From Naegleria gruberi (lineage: Eukaryota): a stretch of DNA of 64,000 bases. Each line of letters opens with the position of its first letter. The stretch's first letter is position 1. The stretch is taken from assembly GCA_000004985.1 (NCBI GenBank), contig GG738856.1; one strand, written 5' to 3'. The notes beneath the pieces are model-generated. The model worked only from the letters and a program-made list of their open reading frames with translations. It was not told the origin of the DNA and searched no databases. A program made the position numbers and the translations under genes. This document shows positions 949-62,634 of this stretch, piece by piece.

Positions 949-1521
949 TAAATTCAAAACCACTAAAGAGTAGGTTTCAAAGTTAGCTCTATTGGACAAT
1001 TCCATAACTTGGATGCATGTGTAAATTGAACTTTCATAATTGCTGTTTCTATTCAATTCAAGTGAGTATTTTCTTGGAAATTGATGTAAATCTTTTCTAG
1101 TACAACAAATTAATTTTAACAACAAAAGATATCAAAGCATAATGACAAGAAATCTATTAATGACTTGTGAGATCTATCATAAAACTATTGAAAGCTTAAC
1201 ACCAAATCAAGATGTAATTTTAGAATTTATGAATTGGTCTCAAGATGGAACTAATTTATTTATTAAATCAAGTGAGGGATAAATTTTTAATATTTTACAT
1301 GTATTGTGATAAGGATGAATATTATGATATGATTGAGGAGATTTTATGGATTGAATTGAACATTGTTATGATTAATTTTAAAATGAAGCTTTTCAACATT
1401 TCCAAAATTCCAAAATTTACAGATATACTTATTGAATAATTCTACTAAAATAACATTAATTACTCTTGTAAAATAATTTACAAATAATTTAAAATTACTG
1501 CTTTAATGTAGTGAGCTTGAT

Positions 1522-2309
1522 TTAATTTGAGCTGCTACCTCCACCACACCTATAGAATGATGGGAAACCACATGAAAACCAAATAATCAAGAAAATTACA
1601 ATCAAAATAATAATAGCAATCACTGACACAATGATGATATTTCTCTTTAACATGTTGTTTTTCAATTTCTTACTCTTTGTCTTGTAAAGTTCAGCAGATT
1701 CAACTAAGTCACCAGTTCTGTTGACAAGAATGTCAATCTTTTCTCCTCTTGCTAAAACCTTGTCGATATTGTCAATCATAATATCCTTAACTTCATTAAT
1801 TTGTCCTTTAACTTTTTGAATACGATCGTTTTGTCTTGGATTGTTAAAGAATTTAGTTTGTTGTTTAAGAATTTGTCCAAACTCTCTGTTAAGTCCATTT
1901 GGTTGAATTCTTTTAGATTGTTCTCCAGGATAACTGCTCAAAAATCGTTCCTTTACATCATCAAGGAAATTGAATGGTATTCTTGAACCAAAATCCTTTC
2001 CACTCATACAGAAGAAGATCAACCCATATTCTCCAACAACCATAATATGGAACATATATTGATCATACACATAGGAGACTATTATGATCATTAAGTTAAT
2101 TTTCTTTCAAAACTCTACAACATACCTTTTGTAGATTTGTTACTTGGGATCTTTTCCAAAATTTGTTTAGAAATTTGTTGGAAATTTCCTTTACTTTCAG
2201 TATATTCACACAATATCGTGGCACCTCTTGCAACCAAAGAATAAATAATTCCGGTTTCGGTTGGGCCTACACCACCACCATCATCATCACCAATACTTCC
2301 ATAACTCAT
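1522..2309 (-). CDS. VAMP7: Longin-type v-SNARE (VAMP7/synaptobrevin family). Two exons: 2309..2126 and 2078..1522 (47-nt intron, donor GTATGT).
   Basis: N-terminal longin domain (IIYSLVARGATIL...), SNARE heptad region (KVKGQINEVKDIMIDNIDKVLARGEKIDILVNRTGDL) and a C-terminal transmembrane segment (IIIVSVIAIIILIVIFLIIW). Track ORFs 2115..2309 and 1522..2091 join in frame via a phase-1 intron. An a-rich run precedes the ATG. Confidence 0.8.
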
Positions 2310-2522
2310 TTTTTTAAAGATTTTTTTTTAAATGATTATTTAATCTTTCGGAGTTTATAAGGTGATGCACGTTTATTGTTTTTAATTGGAAACAGATTAG
2401 AGTTTGGAAATGTACTTGTTTTATTGTTGTGAAATATTATTGTAAAGTTGTATAAATAATAATAGGTTTAGACTCTTTGAATTGAATTTCACTGTTCTTG
2501 CTCACGATGAACTTAAAAAAAA

Positions 2523-3718
2523 ATGTCTGAAAATCAAGTGCCAGAAATTCAGTTGAAGGATGGTGAAGAAAAAGAGATACAAGATCATATGGATCATAAC
2601 GATCATGGAGAACAAACTCTGCCTGTACTCAACGGAGGAAATATAAAATATTTGGATATGGTAGAATTTGATAATCGATTCAATGATGATATATTCCGAT
2701 TGGTTTTGTCTTTTCTTGCTATTCGTGATTTGGGAAGATTGGAAAGAGTGAGTAAACATCTAAGATTGAGCCAATTGTGTGGCGAAGATTCAGAAATATG
2801 GAGGAAAGCTTATGAAAAAAAAGTTACTGAATTACATGAAATTTTGAAAAAATCTGGGGCTATTTATGAAAATCCAATTCTGCCCTTTTTGGGTAAGATA
2901 TCAGATTTTAAATCAAGTATTTGTGGTGCATTGAAAGTGTTTGATACCCTAGTAGAGAAAAAGTCTTCAGTGAGAATGGAAGATATAGAAAGATCGATCA
3001 AGAACTATCCCACTACTGGTATTAAGAACATTTTTGTGCCAAAGGATGAGCTCTTAAAATTCGATGTATCCTCAGCTGTATATAAAAAGAAAGAGGAAGG
3101 TATTAAATTGCTTGCATTAGGTAGGTTTAGTTTAAGAATTATTGATTCATATTATAAGGGGATGGAGCTGTTGGAAAAACTTGTTTGATGCTAAGGTTAC
3201 TCACTGGAGAGTATCCAACCGAGTACGTTCCTACTGTGGTGGACAATTATATGAATAATTATCAACTCGACAATAATGTCTATAGAGTATGTTACTGGGA
3301 TACAGCAAGTTCAGATGATTATCCTAGGCTGAGAGTTTTGGCATATCCTCAAACAGATGTCTTTATGGCAATGTTTAGTTGTGTTCAAGAGTATTCTTTC
3401 AAAAATTTATTCGATGTTTGGATACCAGAAGTGAGACACCATGTTCCTGATGCTGCCACTGTTCTCGTTGCTACAAAGATAGATTTGAGAAGTGATATTG
3501 ATGTTCAGGCAAAACTGATTGAAAGATATTGTACCAGACCGTTCTCTTACAAAGATGGCGAAAAGGCAGCACAACTTTCCAATTGTTTCACCTATTTTGA
3601 GACAAGCTCACTGATGAATATTGGTATCAAAGATTTTACAGAAATAGCCTTAAAGGCACACTTTAAAAATTTGAGTTTGAGAGAAACTAAAGAAAAAAGG
3701 AAATGCATCTTACAATAA
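2523..3718 (+). CDS. F-box-like N-terminal domain fused to a Rho/Rac-family small GTPase with a C-terminal CAAX. Two exons: 2523..3120 and 3159..3718 (38-nt intron, donor GTAGGT, splits the Gly codon of GDGAVGKT).
   Basis: F-box signature DDIFRLVLSFLAIRDLGRLERVSKHLRL...IWRK. After splicing, the P-loop reads LLALG|DGAVGKT. Rho-type blocks follow: TEYVPTVVDNY, WDTASSDDY (G3 lacks the catalytic Gln), the Rac-like TKIDLR, and a polybasic KEKRKCILQ CAAX box. Joining track ORFs 2523..3188 and 3185..3718 is in phase. Confidence 0.7.
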
Positions 3719-3800
3719 TTGCCAAACCTTTTTATTCAAACATAAACAAAGAAATGGCGGCTGATGGTACATTAAGGTTAATTAAGGATTGTGTAGCATA

Positions 3801-3873
3801 GCCCGTCTAGCTCAGTCGGTAGAGCGCAAGGCTCTTAACCTTGTGGTCGTGGGTTCGACCCCCACGGTGGGCG
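3801..3873 (+). tRNA. tRNA-Lys (anticodon CUU)
   Basis: Cloverleaf: acceptor GCCCGTC/GGTGGGC, D-arm GCTCAGTCGGTAGAGC, anticodon stem CAAGG/CCTTG with loop CTCTTAA, T-arm GTGGGTTCGACCCCCAC. Matches the canonical eukaryotic tRNA-Lys(CTT). Confidence 0.9.
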
Positions 3874-4241: not shown

Positions 4242-5921
4242 ATGAGCAACAACAAGTACAGTCACAATGATGCCATCATGGAGATGCAGGATAAATTAAA
4301 CCTTCTGGATGGAGATCGTGATAGAAAAGCAACAATGGAAACAAAACAAAGAGCTTTGCAAAAGAATATCGATACATTAGAGATGGTTAAAAAGGAAAAC
4401 AATGAATTAAAGGAAACGTTAAAAAAGCTTCAAAAAGAAGTAGGAGGAAATAACGGAGAGAAATCATTCCAAGAAAAAGAATATGAAAGATTGGAAACAA
4501 TTCTTCATTTGAAAAGACAAGAATTTGATGAGCTTCAAGCTATTGCTAGAAATTTGCAAAAAACAATCCGAAAGAAGGAAGATAAGTTGGGTGATTTCAA
4601 TAAGGAAAAGGCACCAATCCTTACTGATGACTCGCCCTTGACGAGACAAATCAGAATTTTAGAAAACAGACTCGATAAGGCCATGATTAAGTACAATGAA
4701 GCTCAAAGTATTAAAAAGACATATGAACAAATTTTGGAAAGACTAAAGGAGGAAAGAATAGGGTTCGATAACCAACTTCAAGCAATTGAAAGAACTTTGA
4801 AAGCCAAGGATAAGGACTATATTGAATTGTTGAACATGTCCCGAGATGCTAATTATTTGAGAGAGCTTGCTAAAAATGAATTGACAACAGCAAAAGGTGA
4901 ATTCGAAGAATCTGTTAGGGATATGAGAAAGGAACTTGATGAAAAGAAGAAATATGTTGAAGCTAGAGTTAACTTGACAACTGACTTGGCAAAGAAGGAA
5001 GCAAATAGAAGAAGAAATCAAGATGAAGAAGGATCAAAGAAGTTCAGATCCTCCAGTGCATCTCAACAAAACAGCAGTGTAAATAAGACCCAAGTTGATG
5101 AAGAAAGAGATAGACTTCAAGGTTTAGAAGAAAAATGGAGAAAGATCAAGGAAGTAACTGGTGTAGATGATGTAAATGAAGTTATCCAGAAATTCCTTTC
5201 ATCTTCGGACACACACAAGAATTTGGAACAAATGACAAAGGAATCTCAAAAGAGAATAGAACACCTCACTGAAAAGAGAGCAGCTTTGAAAGCCAGACTT
5301 GAAGATCTTAAATATTCTCAATCATCTGGTTTGGGAAGCAGAAGAATTGTCGACGAATTCATTCAACAATTATCAGAAGCCCAATCAAAGAACGAAAGAC
5401 AAAAGCAACAATTCGAAAGAATTGCCAAAATACTGGTCAACGTTAAAGCTGGTACAGAACACTTGAATGATAAGATGGCCCCAGCTCTTGTTGATTTATC
5501 AATGGCAGAAAATCTTTCAAGGAAGTTTATTGAAGAAATTGCCAGAGGTGAAGATATTTCTCTTAATGCAGAATCAGCCAGGGATGAGAATGTTAGCATG
5601 TCTACAGTCTCACTAGGAACTCAAAGTAACGAAGAACGACATATTGTAAATTTATTAGCACAATGTTATGTCAATTTATCAGCTGTTTTAGAAAGTTTAC
5701 CATCAGAGGAAGAACTATTCCAAGAAACTTTGAAATCTACCGATTCATTTGATTTCAATCAAAGTAAGAATAATATTAGAATTAAGATCAATCATGAAGA
5801 TAATCAAGATTCTGAATCCGAAGATGATGATGATGATAAGGAAGCTGAGCTCATCAGTAGACTTAACGTTAAGAAAAAGGCTGAGAAACTCATGTCCAAA
5901 ACTAAGGTCGTTAAAAAATAA
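4242..5921 (+). CDS. Coiled-coil protein of the CCDC63/CCDC114 (outer dynein arm docking complex DC2) type
   Basis: Continuous 559-aa ORF, heptad-rich throughout. The N-terminal pattern LNLLDGDRDRKA...KENNELKE resembles the conserved start of ODA-DC2/CCDC114-family proteins. The gene sits near DNAI2. Family assignment is tentative. Confidence 0.5.
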   Translation: MSNNKYSHNDAIMEMQDKLNLLDGDRDRKATMETKQRALQKNIDTLEMVKKENNELKETLKKLQKEVGGNNGEKSFQEKEYERLETILHLKRQEFDELQAIARNLQKTIRKKEDKLGDFNKEKAPILTDDSPLTRQIRILENRLDKAMIKYNEAQSIKKTYEQILERLKEERIGFDNQLQAIERTLKAKDKDYIELLNMSRDANYLRELAKNELTTAKGEFEESVRDMRKELDEKKKYVEARVNLTTDLAKKEANRRRNQDEEGSKKFRSSSASQQNSSVNKTQVDEERDRLQGLEEKWRKIKEVTGVDDVNEVIQKFLSSSDTHKNLEQMTKESQKRIEHLTEKRAALKARLEDLKYSQSSGLGSRRIVDEFIQQLSEAQSKNERQKQQFERIAKILVNVKAGTEHLNDKMAPALVDLSMAENLSRKFIEEIARGEDISLNAESARDENVSMSTVSLGTQSNEERHIVNLLAQCYVNLSAVLESLPSEEELFQETLKSTDSFDFNQSKNNIRIKINHEDNQDSESEDDDDDKEAELISRLNVKKKAEKLMSKTKVVKK

Positions 5922-6880: not shown

Positions 6881-8233
6881 ATGAGTGGAAAACAATTGTG
6901 GGTCAAAAAGACAGTGGTCAATAATAACCAACAACAACAACCATCATCTCCCAATACAGCAACAACAAACAATAATACTCCAACAAGTAATACAACAACT
7001 CCGAATGTTACCTCAGGAAGTGATCAATCATCTTCAACCCAACCAAATAATCCTGCCAGCACATCACCATCTTCAACTCTAAAGATTACTTCAACACTCA
7101 AACACAATGCCACTCCATTTACTCCCCAAAACTTTGTACCCCTTACACAACCTCAACCTGTCCCAACACCACAACCAGTTCCTCCTGTACTAGTAGCTGA
7201 AAAACAACCACACCCTAAAAAGAATCACCCAAAGAAACAACATCAAAAGGCTAATCAAGGAAATAATAATCAACAAAATAATCAAGGAAATAATGTCGGA
7301 AATAGTAATACTAATAATAATAATAATGAACAACATTATGGAAGTCTTTTGAAGAACAAGACAAAAGTAATTATTAGAAATATTCCCTATAATTTTACAG
7401 AGCAGGATTTTATTGTGAAATGTGCTCCAAAGAGTTTTGTTACAGAGCAAGTAAAGCAGCAACAACCTCCTGTTGTAGCTAGTGCCACACCAACTTCGGA
7501 ACCTAGCACTCCAACCCTACCAGAAATTCCACACTTTATCTATGATCCTAAAAAGATCACATGGTCCGACTTTCATGTTGGACACAAGACCATGACTCAG
7601 GTATTTTCAAGTATTGCTTATTTGAATTTTGCAAGTGTTTCCTTGTTGCATCAGTTCAAAAATGAATTTTATGAGGAGTTGAAGAGCAAGCAATCAGTTG
7701 CTCTTTCTTCCTCTGTTCAAATCACGGATGATGATGTTGATGAAAGTCCAGTACCTACATTGGCAGCTACTAATACCTCAATATGGAGAGAAACACCAAT
7801 GACTATTGAATATTGTCCTCTACAAATGGTTCCAAAGCCAAAGAAGAAAGATCCAAGAGATGGAACAATTTTCAAGGATGAACATTATTTAAGATTTTTG
7901 GAACAACTAAAGCAACCTAAAGATCTCACATTACAACCTCTTAGTTTGGATAATAGTTCTACGACAAGTGGACTTGGTCTTGATGGCGGAGAAAGCTCTG
8001 ATGGAAGTACTTCAAGCAAAAAACTTGGTACAAATATTCCACTTGCTCTTGGAGGTGTTGGAGCTTCATCAAGTTATACTAAGAAAACTGACGAACCTAT
8101 TATTTCACCATTATTGAAGGAATTACTTGAAAAGAAAAATAAGAAGGGAGCTAATCAAAATAATGATCCAAACAAACCAAAGGGAAACAATCCTAAGAAG
8201 TCTGGAAAGCCTCAATACAAGAGAAAATACTAA
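6881..8233 (+). CDS. UPF3: UPF3 (regulator of nonsense transcripts 3; Smg4/UPF3 domain) with an N/Q/T-rich N-terminus
   Basis: KTKVIIRNIPYNFTEQDF aligns to KVVIRRLPPTLTKEQL. IEYCPLQMVPKPKKKDPRDGTIFKDEHYLRFLEQL aligns to IVEFAPFQK..KKKRDTKVGTIDDDPEYRKFLES of UPF3B. Confidence 0.75.
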   Translation: MSGKQLWVKKTVVNNNQQQQPSSPNTATTNNNTPTSNTTTPNVTSGSDQSSSTQPNNPASTSPSSTLKITSTLKHNATPFTPQNFVPLTQPQPVPTPQPVPPVLVAEKQPHPKKNHPKKQHQKANQGNNNQQNNQGNNVGNSNTNNNNNEQHYGSLLKNKTKVIIRNIPYNFTEQDFIVKCAPKSFVTEQVKQQQPPVVASATPTSEPSTPTLPEIPHFIYDPKKITWSDFHVGHKTMTQVFSSIAYLNFASVSLLHQFKNEFYEELKSKQSVALSSSVQITDDDVDESPVPTLAATNTSIWRETPMTIEYCPLQMVPKPKKKDPRDGTIFKDEHYLRFLEQLKQPKDLTLQPLSLDNSSTTSGLGLDGGESSDGSTSSKKLGTNIPLALGGVGASSSYTKKTDEPIISPLLKELLEKKNKKGANQNNDPNKPKGNNPKKSGKPQYKRKY

Positions 8234-18727: not shown

Positions 18728-20362
18728 TTATTCAAAGGATTCAGTGGCAACAATTGCTTGAACCTCTTTCTTATCACCGATGTAGGCACCTCTCAACAGA
18801 TAAGTCTTGAGATTAATGATATGTTTAGCATCAACTCCTGAAGCATGTGGATGAGTTTGAATTGTCTTGTGTAAAACTTCAATGGTATTAAATTTCCATT
18901 CTTTGGTCTCCTTATTAGGTTCTGTATTTCTATCGATAATGTAATCAAAGAATTCGCTATGTGCATTAACATGATTCTTCACAAGATTGATTCTTGAGCA
19001 CAAGCCTTTCAAAAAGTGATAGATGGCACATCTCACATCAGAGAATGGAGCTCTCAAATTATACATGGCATAGTTCATAATGTAACTGTTAGAAGGTTTT
19101 GTGATACTTGGTTCAATTCTCTTCTTTAACATGGACTCGAGTACGTTGACAATCTTTTCAGCTCTCTCATCGTCAATTCTAGGTGATTCGAGGATAGAGC
19201 CTAGTGAGTGGTAGAATGCTTGAGCAATTTGGTCGTTGATGGAATCGGCATAGAAAACCAGATATTTTGAAAGTTTTTCCTCATCTCCAAGGAGAATAAA
19301 GTCCAAATTCTTTACCGATGATTTACACAAAGCGCCAATTACTGAAATGGCTACTATTTGAGATTCCTTATTGAATGTATTCGAAAGATCTTCATTAAAG
19401 AGTTTCAAAATGATTGATGGTGGCACTGACAATTTGGATTCTTCTCCAAAGAATAAATTTTCTGCAGCATCTGAAATATCAGCAATCAAATTGAGAATAA
19501 ATGTATAGGTGAGTTGATCCTCTTGGTTGTCATTGAGAATAGCCATTAATAAATCAAATGATCCCTCTTCTTTCAAAGAATTGGCTCCTTGTTTCTTGAA
19601 GCTTTGAAGGCAAAGGGCTTTGAAAATTTCCAAAAAGTTTAAAATTGACAAAATATCATCCTTTGAATTCTTAAAATCGTTATTGAACAATTTGAAAAGA
19701 CCAATATTAGAAACAGCATCGAAAGCTTCTTGGGACAGTCCACATAAAGTTGTCATTAATTCATACACTCTAAATCTATTAATTTCATTTCCAGATTTTG
19801 GCAATTCACCCAATAATTTATCAACCAATAAAGCTTTGTGCTTGTAGAAAATTGCATCTATGCCATCCAATGTCGACGCAATGTTTGTGATGATTTTTAC
19901 AGCAACTTTTTCCACAGAAATTTCAGGATCCAACATTCCACTATACAAAATATCCAAAAACAATTCAGGATTAGCCATCAATGTTTGTAAAGTACATCTA
20001 GCAACTTGATTAATGGTCAATCGTCTAACAATTTCGAATGGATGCTTGTATCCCTGTGCAAGAAATTGTCCAACAATCGGATCAACCAACAAAGCTTGAT
20101 TAACATCGGTTTCTTCCATAATTTTCCCAAAAACAAATACTATCAATTGTAACTGTTCAAGTGATTTTGTGTCAAAACATGGCAAAAAGCTTTGAATCGG
20201 AATATTTGTTGTTAATGTTTGCACTCTTTCTCTAGCTGCTCTAGCATCACCTTGTTGAATCAAGTAAGCCTGAAGTGTCTCGAGGGCCTTGATGATATTA
20301 GCCTTCTTTCCACCCTCCAACCAAGTTTTCAATTGGACAAAGTCTGTTGTTGTAGCTGGCAT
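18728..20362 (-). CDS. PSMD5: 26S proteasome non-ATPase regulatory subunit 5 (S5b) homolog
   Basis: A 544-aa ARM/HEAT-like protein. RFRVYELM aligns to RYRVYELI, and the C-terminal INLKTYLLRGAYIG aligns to LRLRTYLSEGPYYV of human PSMD5. Confidence 0.65.
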   Translation of the reverse strand: MPATTTDFVQLKTWLEGGKKANIIKALETLQAYLIQQGDARAARERVQTLTTNIPIQSFLPCFDTKSLEQLQLIVFVFGKIMEETDVNQALLVDPIVGQFLAQGYKHPFEIVRRLTINQVARCTLQTLMANPELFLDILYSGMLDPEISVEKVAVKIITNIASTLDGIDAIFYKHKALLVDKLLGELPKSGNEINRFRVYELMTTLCGLSQEAFDAVSNIGLFKLFNNDFKNSKDDILSILNFLEIFKALCLQSFKKQGANSLKEEGSFDLLMAILNDNQEDQLTYTFILNLIADISDAAENLFFGEESKLSVPPSIILKLFNEDLSNTFNKESQIVAISVIGALCKSSVKNLDFILLGDEEKLSKYLVFYADSINDQIAQAFYHSLGSILESPRIDDERAEKIVNVLESMLKKRIEPSITKPSNSYIMNYAMYNLRAPFSDVRCAIYHFLKGLCSRINLVKNHVNAHSEFFDYIIDRNTEPNKETKEWKFNTIEVLHKTIQTHPHASGVDAKHIINLKTYLLRGAYIGDKKEVQAIVATESFE

Positions 20363-20687: not shown

Positions 20688-22226
20688 ATGCAACACGTTG
20701 ACACACTAAACGAACAACATGTTGACGACTTGCATCATAAAGCAGATATTGCACGAAGCAATGAACTTGAATTAACACCAGAAGAGCAACAACAACATGA
20801 AGTAAAAACACAAGTTGTCGAGCTACCACTAACAACAACAACAGACAAGACGGTACTCATGAACAATCATCAACCAATTCATTTAAATTTGAGAGGTACA
20901 ATCATGACAGTTTCGTTGAGTACATTCTATTCATGTAAAAGAGAATTGGAAGACAATTTTTTTATGAAAATGTTTTCTGGTGAGCAACCCATCTATAGAA
21001 CTAATTGTCAATCATCGAGTGAGCCAATTTATTTTATTGATTGTGATCCAATCGTATTTAAAAGTGTCCTTGATTGGTTACAATATGGTATTGTGAAAAA
21101 TAATGAACTATCAGGTGAATTGAAAAATGCTTGTAAATTATTCAAACTGTCAACTATTGTTAATATTTTAGAAAATAGAAAATTATCCTATTTAAATTTT
21201 TCAAATTGTGAATTTCAAAATTTAACTTTAAAAGGAATGTACTTGTGTAATTTTACAAATGCTAAATTTGTTAAGTGCTATTTGAAATTTAAAAGTAGAG
21301 ATTATTGTACAATTGATAAATGTGAATTTATTGATTGCGTTTTGAATAGCACATGCTTTACTAGAGATTTCTCAAAGACCAACTTGTCATTGAAAAATAA
21401 TAATACTTTTAATGGATGTAGATTTAAAGATTTAAATTTGACACGTTTAAAAAGTCTATCACAATTTAATGGATGTATATTCGAAAGTTGTTCATTTAGT
21501 TTTGAAAACTTTTCCGAAAAACAAATTGAAAACAGTACTTTTGAAAAAGTTGATTTTAAAAATCAAAATTTGAAAGGTTTTACATTTAAAAATGTTGAAT
21601 TGATTAATTGTTATAATTTTATAGGTCATTGTGAATGTGATTCTGAAGGTACTTTTCAATTTTGTAATTCAACTCTCATTCCAAATTCATTTATTTATTC
21701 TAAATTATTTACAAGTTGTAAAAGTAAATCAATTCCTAAATTGCTATACCGAGGTACCATAGATGGCTTTAAAGCAAAGAATTTTCATTCAAAATGTGAC
21801 AATGCTGGTCCAACATTGGTAATTATCAAATCTGAACATGATGAATTATTTGGTGGTTTCACAACCCAAAATTGGAAATCTCCAACTAATGATTACGCAT
21901 TTGGAAAGGACAATTCTGCATTTATTTTCAAAATTATTCCTGAGAATGAAAATTATCAATTTCAAAAGTTTGACATTTTAAAAAACAAGCAAAAACATGC
22001 AATTTATTTAGATAATAATTACTTGTCTTCATTTGGAGCGTATGGTTGTGATATTTGTATCAAGGACGATTGTAATTTAAATAGCCATTCTTTTTCCAAG
22101 TTTGGATGTAATTATGAATTACCTGATGGATTTAAAACTGACTCATTCGAAGCTCATTCTTATTTGGCTGGAAGTTACGAGTTCAGAGTTGTTGAAATTG
22201 AGGTTTTCAAAATAAGAAATCAATAA
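20688..22226 (+). CDS. BTB/POZ (KCTD-like tetramerisation) plus pentapeptide-repeat region plus C-terminal TLDc domain protein
   Basis: The N-terminus IHLNLRGTIMTVSLSTF...PIYFIDCDPIVFKSVLDWLQYG is a T1/BTB_2 fold. The central block NFSNCEFQNLTLKGMYLCNFTNAKF... matches the pentapeptide-repeat pattern. The C-terminus LLYRGTIDGFKAKNFHSKCDNAGPTLVIIKS..LFGGFT is TLDc-like. The BTB and pentapeptide portion resembles KCTD9. Confidence 0.6.
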   Translation: MQHVDTLNEQHVDDLHHKADIARSNELELTPEEQQQHEVKTQVVELPLTTTTDKTVLMNNHQPIHLNLRGTIMTVSLSTFYSCKRELEDNFFMKMFSGEQPIYRTNCQSSSEPIYFIDCDPIVFKSVLDWLQYGIVKNNELSGELKNACKLFKLSTIVNILENRKLSYLNFSNCEFQNLTLKGMYLCNFTNAKFVKCYLKFKSRDYCTIDKCEFIDCVLNSTCFTRDFSKTNLSLKNNNTFNGCRFKDLNLTRLKSLSQFNGCIFESCSFSFENFSEKQIENSTFEKVDFKNQNLKGFTFKNVELINCYNFIGHCECDSEGTFQFCNSTLIPNSFIYSKLFTSCKSKSIPKLLYRGTIDGFKAKNFHSKCDNAGPTLVIIKSEHDELFGGFTTQNWKSPTNDYAFGKDNSAFIFKIIPENENYQFQKFDILKNKQKHAIYLDNNYLSSFGAYGCDICIKDDCNLNSHSFSKFGCNYELPDGFKTDSFEAHSYLAGSYEFRVVEIEVFKIRNQ

Positions 22227-41130: not shown

Positions 41131-42330
41131 ATGTCAACACATGGTGGGGAACTCTATCACCAGCTTCCATCAGAAATCATCATGGAAATTCTGTCCTATT
41201 TAGAATTTGAAGCCAAGTTGTGCAGTGGAAAATCTTCAACATTTTTCAAGTATTATTTTGGAAGATTTAGAACAGGAAATATTTGCTTCTTATTCAAGAA
41301 TTTGTGTTGGGATCAAACGAGGGTGGAAGAATCATTTGAAAGACAAGTGATAAATATTGAACTTTGTGCCAATGATGGAAAGAGAATTGACTTGATAGAA
41401 GGTGAAAAATCGAATATTTTGAAACCAAACCTCCAGAAACATAATACTGAAGAAAAAGTAATTGAAAATTTGGAAAGAACATTCAAAAATGTGGATACAG
41501 ATTTGGTTAAATCAATTCACTTATCTAGTGACGATCTTCCAGAATATGTTTCTCAATGGGCATTGAAAAAGTTTACAAGTTCGGAAAATATTAATATTAG
41601 ATGTGATTATTATTCTAATAGTGATTATGGTCTCTCAAGCTTGGCTTCTTTAATTGCAAAGTGTAGAAATTTGAAGAAATTGACATTGGATTGTATTGAT
41701 TCAAGCTCATTAATTGAACATTTTATTGAAATATCAAAAAACACTCCTCAATTAGAATATTTCAAAAACAAATCATTAACATCAATTTTTACAGCGCCAG
41801 AAATATTTGAAAATTGGAAGAATATCAAAGAGATTTATTCCGTTATTTATCTAATAAGAGGTGAAATTACAGAAGATCCAACAAGTGAGCAAGTTGTTGA
41901 ATCATTTGCAGCCATAAATAAGTTGAAATATTTGGAGAAGATGGTACTCACAACATTGAGATTAAGCTTGTCATATGCTGAGTTTTCTGATTATTTGATG
42001 GATTCAATTTCCAAAAATAGTCAATTGAAAGAGCTTTCATTTGAGAATGGTGGATATAGGGAAAATCTCACAAGGTTGACCCCTGAAACATTTAAACAAT
42101 TGGAAACCTTTAAAATGTTTAGTATTACGAATGAATTAGCAGAACATTTCTCTAAATTTGAGTCTATTAAGAAACTCTCCATCAAATATGCTGAAATAGA
42201 TCAGTTTGGATTGGAATCTTTATTAAAATTACCAAAATTAGAAAAGGTAATTTATTCGAAGGGTTTCAATGCACTTGAATTTGATTTACCACAAAATGGG
42301 AAGATAGTTTTTGAGAAACTAAAAAGTTAG
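41131..42330 (+). CDS. F-box / LRR-like protein
   Basis: The N-terminal LPSEIIMEILSYLEFEAKL is an F-box. The remainder has an irregular leucine-rich periodicity (LKKLTLDCIDSSSLIEHF..., LKELSFENGGY...). Confidence 0.5.
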   Translation: MSTHGGELYHQLPSEIIMEILSYLEFEAKLCSGKSSTFFKYYFGRFRTGNICFLFKNLCWDQTRVEESFERQVINIELCANDGKRIDLIEGEKSNILKPNLQKHNTEEKVIENLERTFKNVDTDLVKSIHLSSDDLPEYVSQWALKKFTSSENINIRCDYYSNSDYGLSSLASLIAKCRNLKKLTLDCIDSSSLIEHFIEISKNTPQLEYFKNKSLTSIFTAPEIFENWKNIKEIYSVIYLIRGEITEDPTSEQVVESFAAINKLKYLEKMVLTTLRLSLSYAEFSDYLMDSISKNSQLKELSFENGGYRENLTRLTPETFKQLETFKMFSITNELAEHFSKFESIKKLSIKYAEIDQFGLESLLKLPKLEKVIYSKGFNALEFDLPQNGKIVFEKLKS

Positions 42331-60744: not shown

Positions 60745-60818
60745 TACAGCGAGCGGGGCTTGAACCCGCGACCTTAAGCGTGTTAGGCTTACGATCTAAC
60801 CAACTGATCTATCGCTGC
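60745..60818 (-). tRNA. tRNA-Val (anticodon AAC)
   Basis: Reverse complement GCAGCGATAGATCAGTTGGTTAGATCGTAAGCCTAACACGCTTAAGGTCGCGGGTTCAAGCCCCGCTCGCTGTA folds as a cloverleaf with anticodon loop CTAACAC. There is a G1-U72 pair in the acceptor stem. Confidence 0.8.
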
Positions 60819-62563: not shown

Positions 62564-62634
62564 TGCGTCGACCGGGAATTGAACCCGGGTCACGGCGATG
62601 GCAACGCCGTATTCTACCACTAAACCATCGACGC
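62564..62634 (-). tRNA. tRNA-Gly (anticodon GCC)
   Basis: Reverse complement GCGTCGATGGTTTAGTGGTAGAATACGGCGTTGCCATCGCCGTGACCCGGGTTCAATTCCCGGTCGACGCA is a near-canonical eukaryotic tRNA-Gly(GCC). Confidence 0.9.

Follow-up and report, generated by a model that had tools for sequence, protein, structure and literature searches.

A Rac-like GTPase domain behind an F-box in Naegleria gruberi: a candidate membrane-anchored SCF receptor from a Naegleria/Willaertia family

A stretch of 64,000 nucleotides from contig GG738856.1 of Naegleria gruberi (GenBank assembly GCA_000004985.1), hereafter referred to as the window, was analyzed with a focus on one spliced gene at positions 2523 to 3718. The gene lies on the plus strand, as do all of its features given below, and encodes a protein of 385 residues in which an F-box is followed by a helical linker, a Rho/Rac-type G domain, and a polybasic CAAX tail. 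The identity of the gene and this architecture can be regarded as practically certain. The gene is one member of an expansion of F-box-linker-Rho proteins that is specific to Naegleria and Willaertia. Judging from the sequences, we give an even chance to the reading that the protein is a farnesyl-anchored receptor of the SCF (Skp1-Cul1-Rbx1) ubiquitin ligase, in which a non-hydrolysing Rho-like domain would serve as the recognition module.

In the unspliced sequence, the ATG at 2523 opens an open reading frame (ORF) of 221 codons, and a second ORF begins at 3185 and closes with the TAA at 3716-3718. A 38-nucleotide phase 1 intron with GT..AG ends (3121-3158; GTAGGT...TATAAG) is predicted to interrupt the GGG codon of Gly200 behind its first base; Gly200 is the equivalent of Rac1 G10 and the first Gly of the P-loop GDGAVGKT. 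When exon 1 (2523-3120) is joined to exon 2 (3159-3718), an in-frame sequence of 1158 nucleotides (385 codons) is obtained and GDGAVGKT is restored. With the intron retained, a stop codon follows after 221 residues, 21 codons past the junction; the P-loop is split, and the downstream ORF lacks it. Exon 1 begins with Met1, ends one base into the Gly200 codon, and encodes a disordered head, the F-box, the linker, and the G domain as far as its first beta-strand; the remainder of the Rac-like domain, the polybasic CAAX tail, and the TAA stop lie in exon 2. The gene region is AT-rich (33.5% G+C), and the start codon, ORF, splice sites, and CAAX box are all intact.

The spliced product is identical at every residue to XP_002679732.1 (EFC46988.1; UniProt D2V859), which is named "rho family small GTPase" of Naegleria gruberi NEG-M in GenBank, where the model is also spliced. 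The prediction that 3121-3158 is removed is based on the restored P-loop, on this existing annotation, and on homologues with an uninterrupted fusion ORF. Since these homologues carry the fusion in uninterrupted ORFs, the F-box-Rho fusion is independent of the predicted intron. An earlier note on this DNA, made from the sequence without database searches, had proposed a gene at 2523-3718 with its intron in the P-loop Gly codon; the coordinates and motifs that it gave are present, and its model is the one in GenBank. A search for a second Rho or F-box-linker copy within the window found none.

The assignment of the C-terminal half to the Rho/Rac type is solid. The G domain occupies residues 194-366 (3102-3658, spanning the intron) and matches Pfam Ras (PF00071) at 1e-31 over residues 195-361. 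In a search of solved structures, the best 60 matches were all Rac1/2/3 or Cdc42 (2e-46 to 3e-41), with Rac1 matched at 2e-46 over residues 192-384 and 45% identity across the G domain. The AlphaFold model of the domain has a predicted local distance difference test (pLDDT) score above 90 over most of its length, and Foldseek superposed it on Rac2 and Rac1 with a template modeling (TM) score of 0.93 and a root-mean-square deviation of 1.0-1.4 Å over 173 columns. The P-loop (G1) GDGAVGKT is found at residues 200-207 (3120-3181, including the intron), G4 TKID at residues 305-308 (3473-3484), and G5 TSSL at residues 348-351 (3602-3613). Residues 310-327 (3488-3541) form the Rho insert, which aligns to Rac1 117-137 with one single-residue gap and in which a helix is predicted at residues 313-323. 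These results bear out the earlier description of a Rho-family G domain with GDGAVGKT and TKxD.

The exceptional part of the domain is G3 and the start of switch II, where WDTASSD (residues 246-252; 3296-3316) carries G60S and Q61S relative to Rac1, the latter at Ser251. E62D, F37V in switch I, and A159S are further changes, and G10, G12, G15, K16, T17, Y32, T35, D38, D57, A59, R66, K116, D118, and S158 are all kept. Substitutions at position 61 of Ras and Rho proteins abolish the hydrolysis stimulated by GTPase-activating proteins (GAPs), and the Gly of DxxG is required for the movement of switch II driven by the gamma-phosphate. The missing catalytic Gln that had been read from WDTASSD is confirmed by the mapping to Rac1, and its loss is typical of the clade. 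The likeness to Rnd, RhoH, and RhoBTB drawn from the same motif holds for the replaced Q61; in contrast to Rnd and RhoH, G12 is retained here and the Gly of DxxG is lost. Taken together, the domain should be a lipidated binder of guanine nucleotide that is unlikely to cycle, as far as its residues predict.

The protein ends 19 residues past the G domain. Its tail consists of the polybasic patch KEKRK (residues 377-381) and the CAAX box CILQ (residues 382-385), which together lie within 3689-3715 directly before the stop codon. Farnesyltransferase acts on CaaX boxes whose last residue is Q, S, M, or A, as in Rap2A, and CILQ accordingly predicts a farnesyl rather than a geranylgeranyl group. The polybasic-CAAX tail noted earlier is present, with C382 to Q385 immediately ahead of the stop, and a CxxQ ending is shared by 24 of 30 relatives.

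Ahead of the G domain, three parts can be distinguished. The head (residues 1-44; 2523-2654) is acidic and polar and is predicted to be disordered (pLDDT <50). The F-box (FNDDIFRLVLSFLAIRDLGRLERVSKHLRLSQLCGEDSEIWRKAY; residues 53-97, 45 residues; 2679-2813) is subthreshold in Pfam on its own and is recognized by a profile of the family. It is followed by a helical, family-specific linker of about 95 residues (98-193; 2814-3101), which is conserved in alignments and for which a Pfam scan of the protein returned no covering family. The linker contains a conserved DFK motif (residues 127-132; 2901-2918) and, directly ahead of the G domain, the conserved motif FVPKDELLKFDV (residues 171-182; 3033-3068); in the model, a long helix spans residues 126-160, and residues 171-180 reach a pLDDT of 96. 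Of the layout suggested earlier, the F-box-like motif stands, and the further 200 or so residues placed behind it do not, as the whole N-terminal region measures about 193 residues.

The homology of the F-box is supported through the family and not from the single sequence, for which the Pfam E-values range from 5.6e-4 to 0.02. Among 12 aligned N-terminal relatives, PF00646 was matched by 11 (best 1.5e-9) and PF12937 by 10 (best 4e-13). When a profile of these 12 sequences was compared with all PDB sequences, the best 30 matches were all F-box proteins, including FBXO3 (2.3e-9), FBXW12/19/21 (about 1e-6), FBXL5, beta-TrCP, Skp2, FBXW7, FBXL2 (6o60), and FBXO4. In the family alignments, few stretches of the N-terminal module are as well conserved as the F-box core. 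Thus, the earlier F-box call stands at the level of the family profile, where the match is clear, and on the test set beforehand for it, the Pfam F-box hidden Markov models, this sequence narrowly misses the cut-offs.

With the N-terminal profile, 1.84 billion representatives were searched exhaustively in HMMER. The module was found in 199 proteins at an E-value of ≤1e-3 and in 30 at ≤1e-10, and a Rho-like G domain stood directly behind it in about 45 of the top 145 matches. The named members come from Naegleria fowleri, N. lovaniensis, N. gruberi, and Willaertia magna only, and the others are metagenomic. Similar architectures in related protists, of the kind that the earlier note had suggested looking for, are thus found in other Naegleria and in W. 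magna. The N. lovaniensis protein C9374_002053 (P0006) is 34% identical over 86% of the query. One uninterrupted ORF from a JGI metagenome (P0097; L003, 4001-4966) has precomputed Pfam hits to both F-box and Ras, and another from an ENA fragment (P0089; L004, 22-1239) carries Kelch, F-box, linker, P-loop, and switch I. A word-indexed search with the N-terminal 202 residues returned only the near-identical fragment P0001, and with the 12-sequence profile it returned only three proteins. On the P0097 contig, a 640-residue Kelch beta-propeller ORF (1800-3722) lies on the same strand 279 nucleotides upstream. Both ORFs may belong to one Kelch-F-box-Rho gene that an intron interrupts, which would resemble those Rac entries of N. 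gruberi that are listed with "Kelch, F-box".

Motifs were surveyed in 30 full-length members, six of which were N. gruberi sequences from the table of Herman et al. 2021. The residues of the nucleotide pocket are kept: G10 and G15 in all 30, K16 in 28, T/S17 in 29, D57 in 28, K116 in 29, D118 in 26, and S158 in 29. Conservation is relaxed at G12 (12/30) and Q61 (9/30). Compared with 81 plain Rho matches from the homologue search, a control that allows only a rough comparison, the largest excess variability falls on Q61, P29, F37, G12, N39, E62, I33, and A59 (Rac1 numbering). From these alignments, the family appears clearly constrained in its nucleotide pocket and free of constraint on catalysis and on the canonical effector and GAP face. 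A constrained pocket beside a free catalytic and effector face argues against simple decay and in favor of a nucleotide-binding, non-cycling module.

Previously, Herman et al. 2021 (BMC Biol 19:142, PMC8296547) re-annotated the genes of the Ras superfamily in N. gruberi and N. fowleri. Their Table S8 (Additional file 10) contains the row "Rac XP_002679732.1 F-box", which is the same gene, with a protein identical to that of the window, and it also lists paralogues with Kelch and F-box or with BTB and F-box before the Rac domain. Additional file 4 proposes GTPase-dependent ubiquitination for the F-box-GTPase fusions, and true RhoBTB genes of N. gruberi are recorded in the same supplement. The architecture and the idea of GTPase-linked ubiquitination are therefore already known, in a supplement and without experiments. 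In the passages of that supplement considered here, the domain combination alone is catalogued, with no mention that Q61 and G12 are lost in the Rho subgroup as a whole, nor of the CxxQ tail, the conserved linker, or the Willaertia members. A literature search for the accession and for F-box/Rho fusions elsewhere yielded nothing beyond this paper, no main-text mention of XP_002679732.1, and no experimental study of any family member; one on Skp1 and cullin in Naegleria brought no usable result. Here, we add the conserved pocket, the largely abandoned catalytic Gln and Gly, the near-universal farnesyl-type CxxQ, the conserved linker, and the members from Willaertia.

In the proposed mechanism, the N-terminal F-box would bind the presumed N. 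gruberi Skp1, and the protein would thereby join an SCF ubiquitin ligase. Cys382 of CILQ would be farnesylated and, together with the KEKRK patch, would anchor the protein at a membrane. The Rac-like domain would replace the usual WD40 or leucine-rich repeat domain in substrate binding. It would still bind guanine nucleotide, and with Gln61 and Gly60 gone, neither hydrolysis nor shut-off by a GAP would be possible, so that it would act as a constitutive binding module and not as a timer. Proteins that bind the diverged switch surface would then be brought to a membrane-located ligase. An F-box followed by a helical linker and then by a globular domain at the C terminus is the canonical topology of SCF substrate receptors, which argues for the receptor reading. 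From these features, we infer both the nucleotide state and that the protein binds Skp1, is farnesylated, and acts as a substrate receptor. F-box-GTPase fusions are rare. If this architecture works as suggested, small-GTPase recognition would be coupled directly to ubiquitination through cullin-1 at membranes, and the fusions would be a counterpart, specific to this lineage, of RhoBTB and Cul3. The earlier note had put forward such a cullin-1 counterpart of RhoBTB; the idea is supported as an interpretation, and it had in essence already been published for this gene set.

Several observations weigh against this receptor reading. At its N terminus, the protein alone scores 18.3-20.1 bits against PF12937 (F-box-like) and 15.2-17.4 bits against PF00646 (F-box), for which the gathering thresholds are 24.3 and 20.5 bits, respectively. 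The Leu-Pro dipeptide of most F-boxes contacts Skp1, and Phe-Asn is found at this site here. An AlphaFold model of the N terminus only was of low confidence (mean pLDDT 57.8; predicted TM score 0.30), and a Foldseek comparison of it with the PDB gave no match with an E-value below 1; in the full-length model, the F-box forms three short helices (55-64, 67-76, and 82-85) at a low pLDDT of 50-66. In the G domain, G12 is retained (Gly202), and in combination with G60S this means that a "GTP-locked" state may not equal an "active conformation". By analogy with Ras G60A, G60S may even bar switch II from any GTP-type conformation, in which case the domain could be a pseudo-switch. The homologue searches found no homologue above about 40% identity. 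Finally, the F-box-GTPase family is described in the supplement as evolving by birth and death, with disrupted copies in related F-box-Rab-like groups (PMC8296547).

Four other explanations were weighed against the receptor reading. The protein may carry a built-in off-switch, with the Rho domain as a signaling output and the F-box routing the protein itself to ubiquitination by SCF in place of GTP hydrolysis, much as turnover controls Rnd3, RhoH, and RhoBTB. This is compatible with a receptor and agrees with the loss of the catalytic residues from a conserved nucleotide pocket; auto-ubiquitination within SCF is common among F-box proteins, and Rho proteins deficient in hydrolysis are regulated by the amount present. 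However, the domain order is that of a receptor, and a switch I and effector face diversified across the family suits varied partners better than a shared signaling output. We regard an off-switch as possible and rather unlikely. It is less probable still that the F-box is degenerate, its helices no longer binding Skp1 and serving only as a scaffold or oligomerization module of an atypical membrane Rho that has no part in a ubiquitin ligase. The subthreshold Pfam scores, the Phe-Asn, and the low-confidence model without fold matches would fit such a loss, but the F-box core ranks with the most conserved parts of the N-terminal module, the family profile recognizes bona fide Skp1-binding F-boxes, and the Pfam models accept close relatives at E-values as low as 4e-13.

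The gene could also be a recently duplicated member of a birth-and-death family on its way to a pseudogene, with the odd G3 motif as damage. Such decay would be in line with the disrupted copies of related groups described in the supplement (PMC8296547) and with homologue searches that found nothing above about 40% identity. An environmental allele (L002) differs in exon 1 by four non-synonymous and two synonymous changes, too few to test for decay. Set against these points, the ORF, splice sites, start codon, and CAAX box are all intact, every nucleotide-binding residue is kept, and the differences fall only at family-variable positions, and we hold decay to be very improbable. Almost no credence is given to two unspliced genes, a 221-residue F-box protein and a GTPase fragment without a P-loop. 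Prokaryote-style gene callers do report the 221-residue read-through ORF (P0001) on metagenome contigs, but the second ORF would lack a P-loop that splicing recreates exactly, the GenBank model is spliced, and homologues have the same fusion in a single ORF.

A further, speculative reading, to which we assign a very small probability, is that of an integrated decoy, in which a farnesylated Rho-like bait on SCF would capture Rho-targeting bacterial effectors or toxins for ubiquitination. Several of the hypervariable positions, catalytic and in switch I, are contact or modification sites of such toxins. A decoy would account for an expansion restricted to the bacterivorous Naegleria and Willaertia, for rapid birth and death, and for the conserved pocket next to hypervariable Q61, G12, P29, F37, and N39, and this pattern is the only basis of the idea.

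Among known systems, RhoBTB (RacA of Dictyostelium and metazoan RhoBTB1-3) is similar in that an atypical Rho with divergent GTPase motifs is fused to an adaptor of a cullin-RING ligase. In RhoBTB, however, the Rho domain is N-terminal and is followed by tandem BTB domains that serve Cul3, whereas here an N-terminal F-box (expected to serve Skp1 and Cul1) precedes a C-terminal Rho domain with a CAAX box. Membership in RhoBTB itself was rejected, as Pfam gave no BTB match even at E-values up to 10 and the protein ends shortly after its G domain. Rnd1-3 and RhoH share the replaced catalytic Gln (Q61S here), but in these proteins Gly12 is replaced and the DxxG Gly is kept, the reverse of the present case, and they have no F-box. 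Rnd proteins are farnesylated, and the best matches of the present protein are Rac and Cdc42. Membership in this group was likewise rejected, as G12 is kept and Rnd and RhoH are, to our knowledge, known only as metazoan clades.

FBXL2 (PDB 6o60, GGTase3-FBXL2-SKP1) is an F-box receptor held at membranes by the lipid on its C-terminal CaaX box, and its F-box is one of the profile matches. It is geranylgeranylated and provides a precedent for a prenylated F-box protein. FBXL2 recognizes its substrates by leucine-rich repeats, whereas the present protein has a C-terminal Rho fold, and the final Q of its CaaX box predicts a farnesyl group. Rac1, to which the G domain is 45% identical, has the same P-loop, T35, TKxD, Rho insert, and type of polybasic CAAX tail; the present protein differs from it in G60S, Q61S, F37V, an N-terminal extension of 193 residues, and a tail that ends in CILQ where Rac1 has CLLL.

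An environmental contig (ENA ERZ929261 k127_64429; locus L002) carries a 99.4% identical allele, aligned to window positions 1360-3421, with 12 substitutions and three small indels over about 2 kb. Six of the differences lie in exon 1, two synonymous and four conservative/non-synonymous, which are too few for a ratio of non-synonymous to synonymous rates; the intron and the covered part of exon 2 have none. The exon-1 fragment P0001, obtained from an ENA metagenome by prokaryote-style gene calling, is the 221-residue read-through ORF, and its 90% cluster includes XP_002679732.1. The ODAD1-type ORF at 4242-5921 of the window is also present in the ERZ929261 sample (L001), with 100% protein identity. 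An N. gruberi strain very near NEG-M is therefore present in that sample.

Of the neighbors in the window, a divergent gene on the minus strand at 1522-2309 encodes a longin and synaptobrevin (VAMP7-like) protein, XP_002679864.1, which is annotated as a partial model. It contains a probable 47-nucleotide GT..AG intron (2079-2125), similar in size to that of the F-box-Rho gene. Only 213 base pairs separate the start codons of these two genes, and a bidirectional promoter region is therefore probably shared. On the other side, a tRNA-Lys(CTT) gene (3801-3873), likewise on the plus strand, lies only 83 nucleotides 3' of the stop codon of the F-box-Rho gene. The genes at 4242-5921 (ODAD1 type), 6881-8233 (homologous to UPF3/Smg4), 18728-20362 (a non-ATPase subunit of the proteasome, PF10508), and 20688-22226 (with a TLDc domain) are ordinary housekeeping or flagellar genes and have no evident connection to the F-box-Rho gene. 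Exact sequence matches of other, single-exon window ORFs were N. gruberi NEG-M proteins of a single contig, among them XP_002679733.1 (the ODAD1-type coiled-coil protein, 4242-5921), XP_002679735.1, XP_002679737.1, and XP_002679740.1. This last is an unrelated second F-box protein of 399 residues (41131-42330, plus strand), which has a canonical LPSEII start to its F-box and is named "F-box domain-containing protein" in UniProt. Near the far end of the window, tRNA-Val(AAC) (60745-60818) and tRNA-Gly(GCC) (62564-62634) are both encoded on the minus strand.

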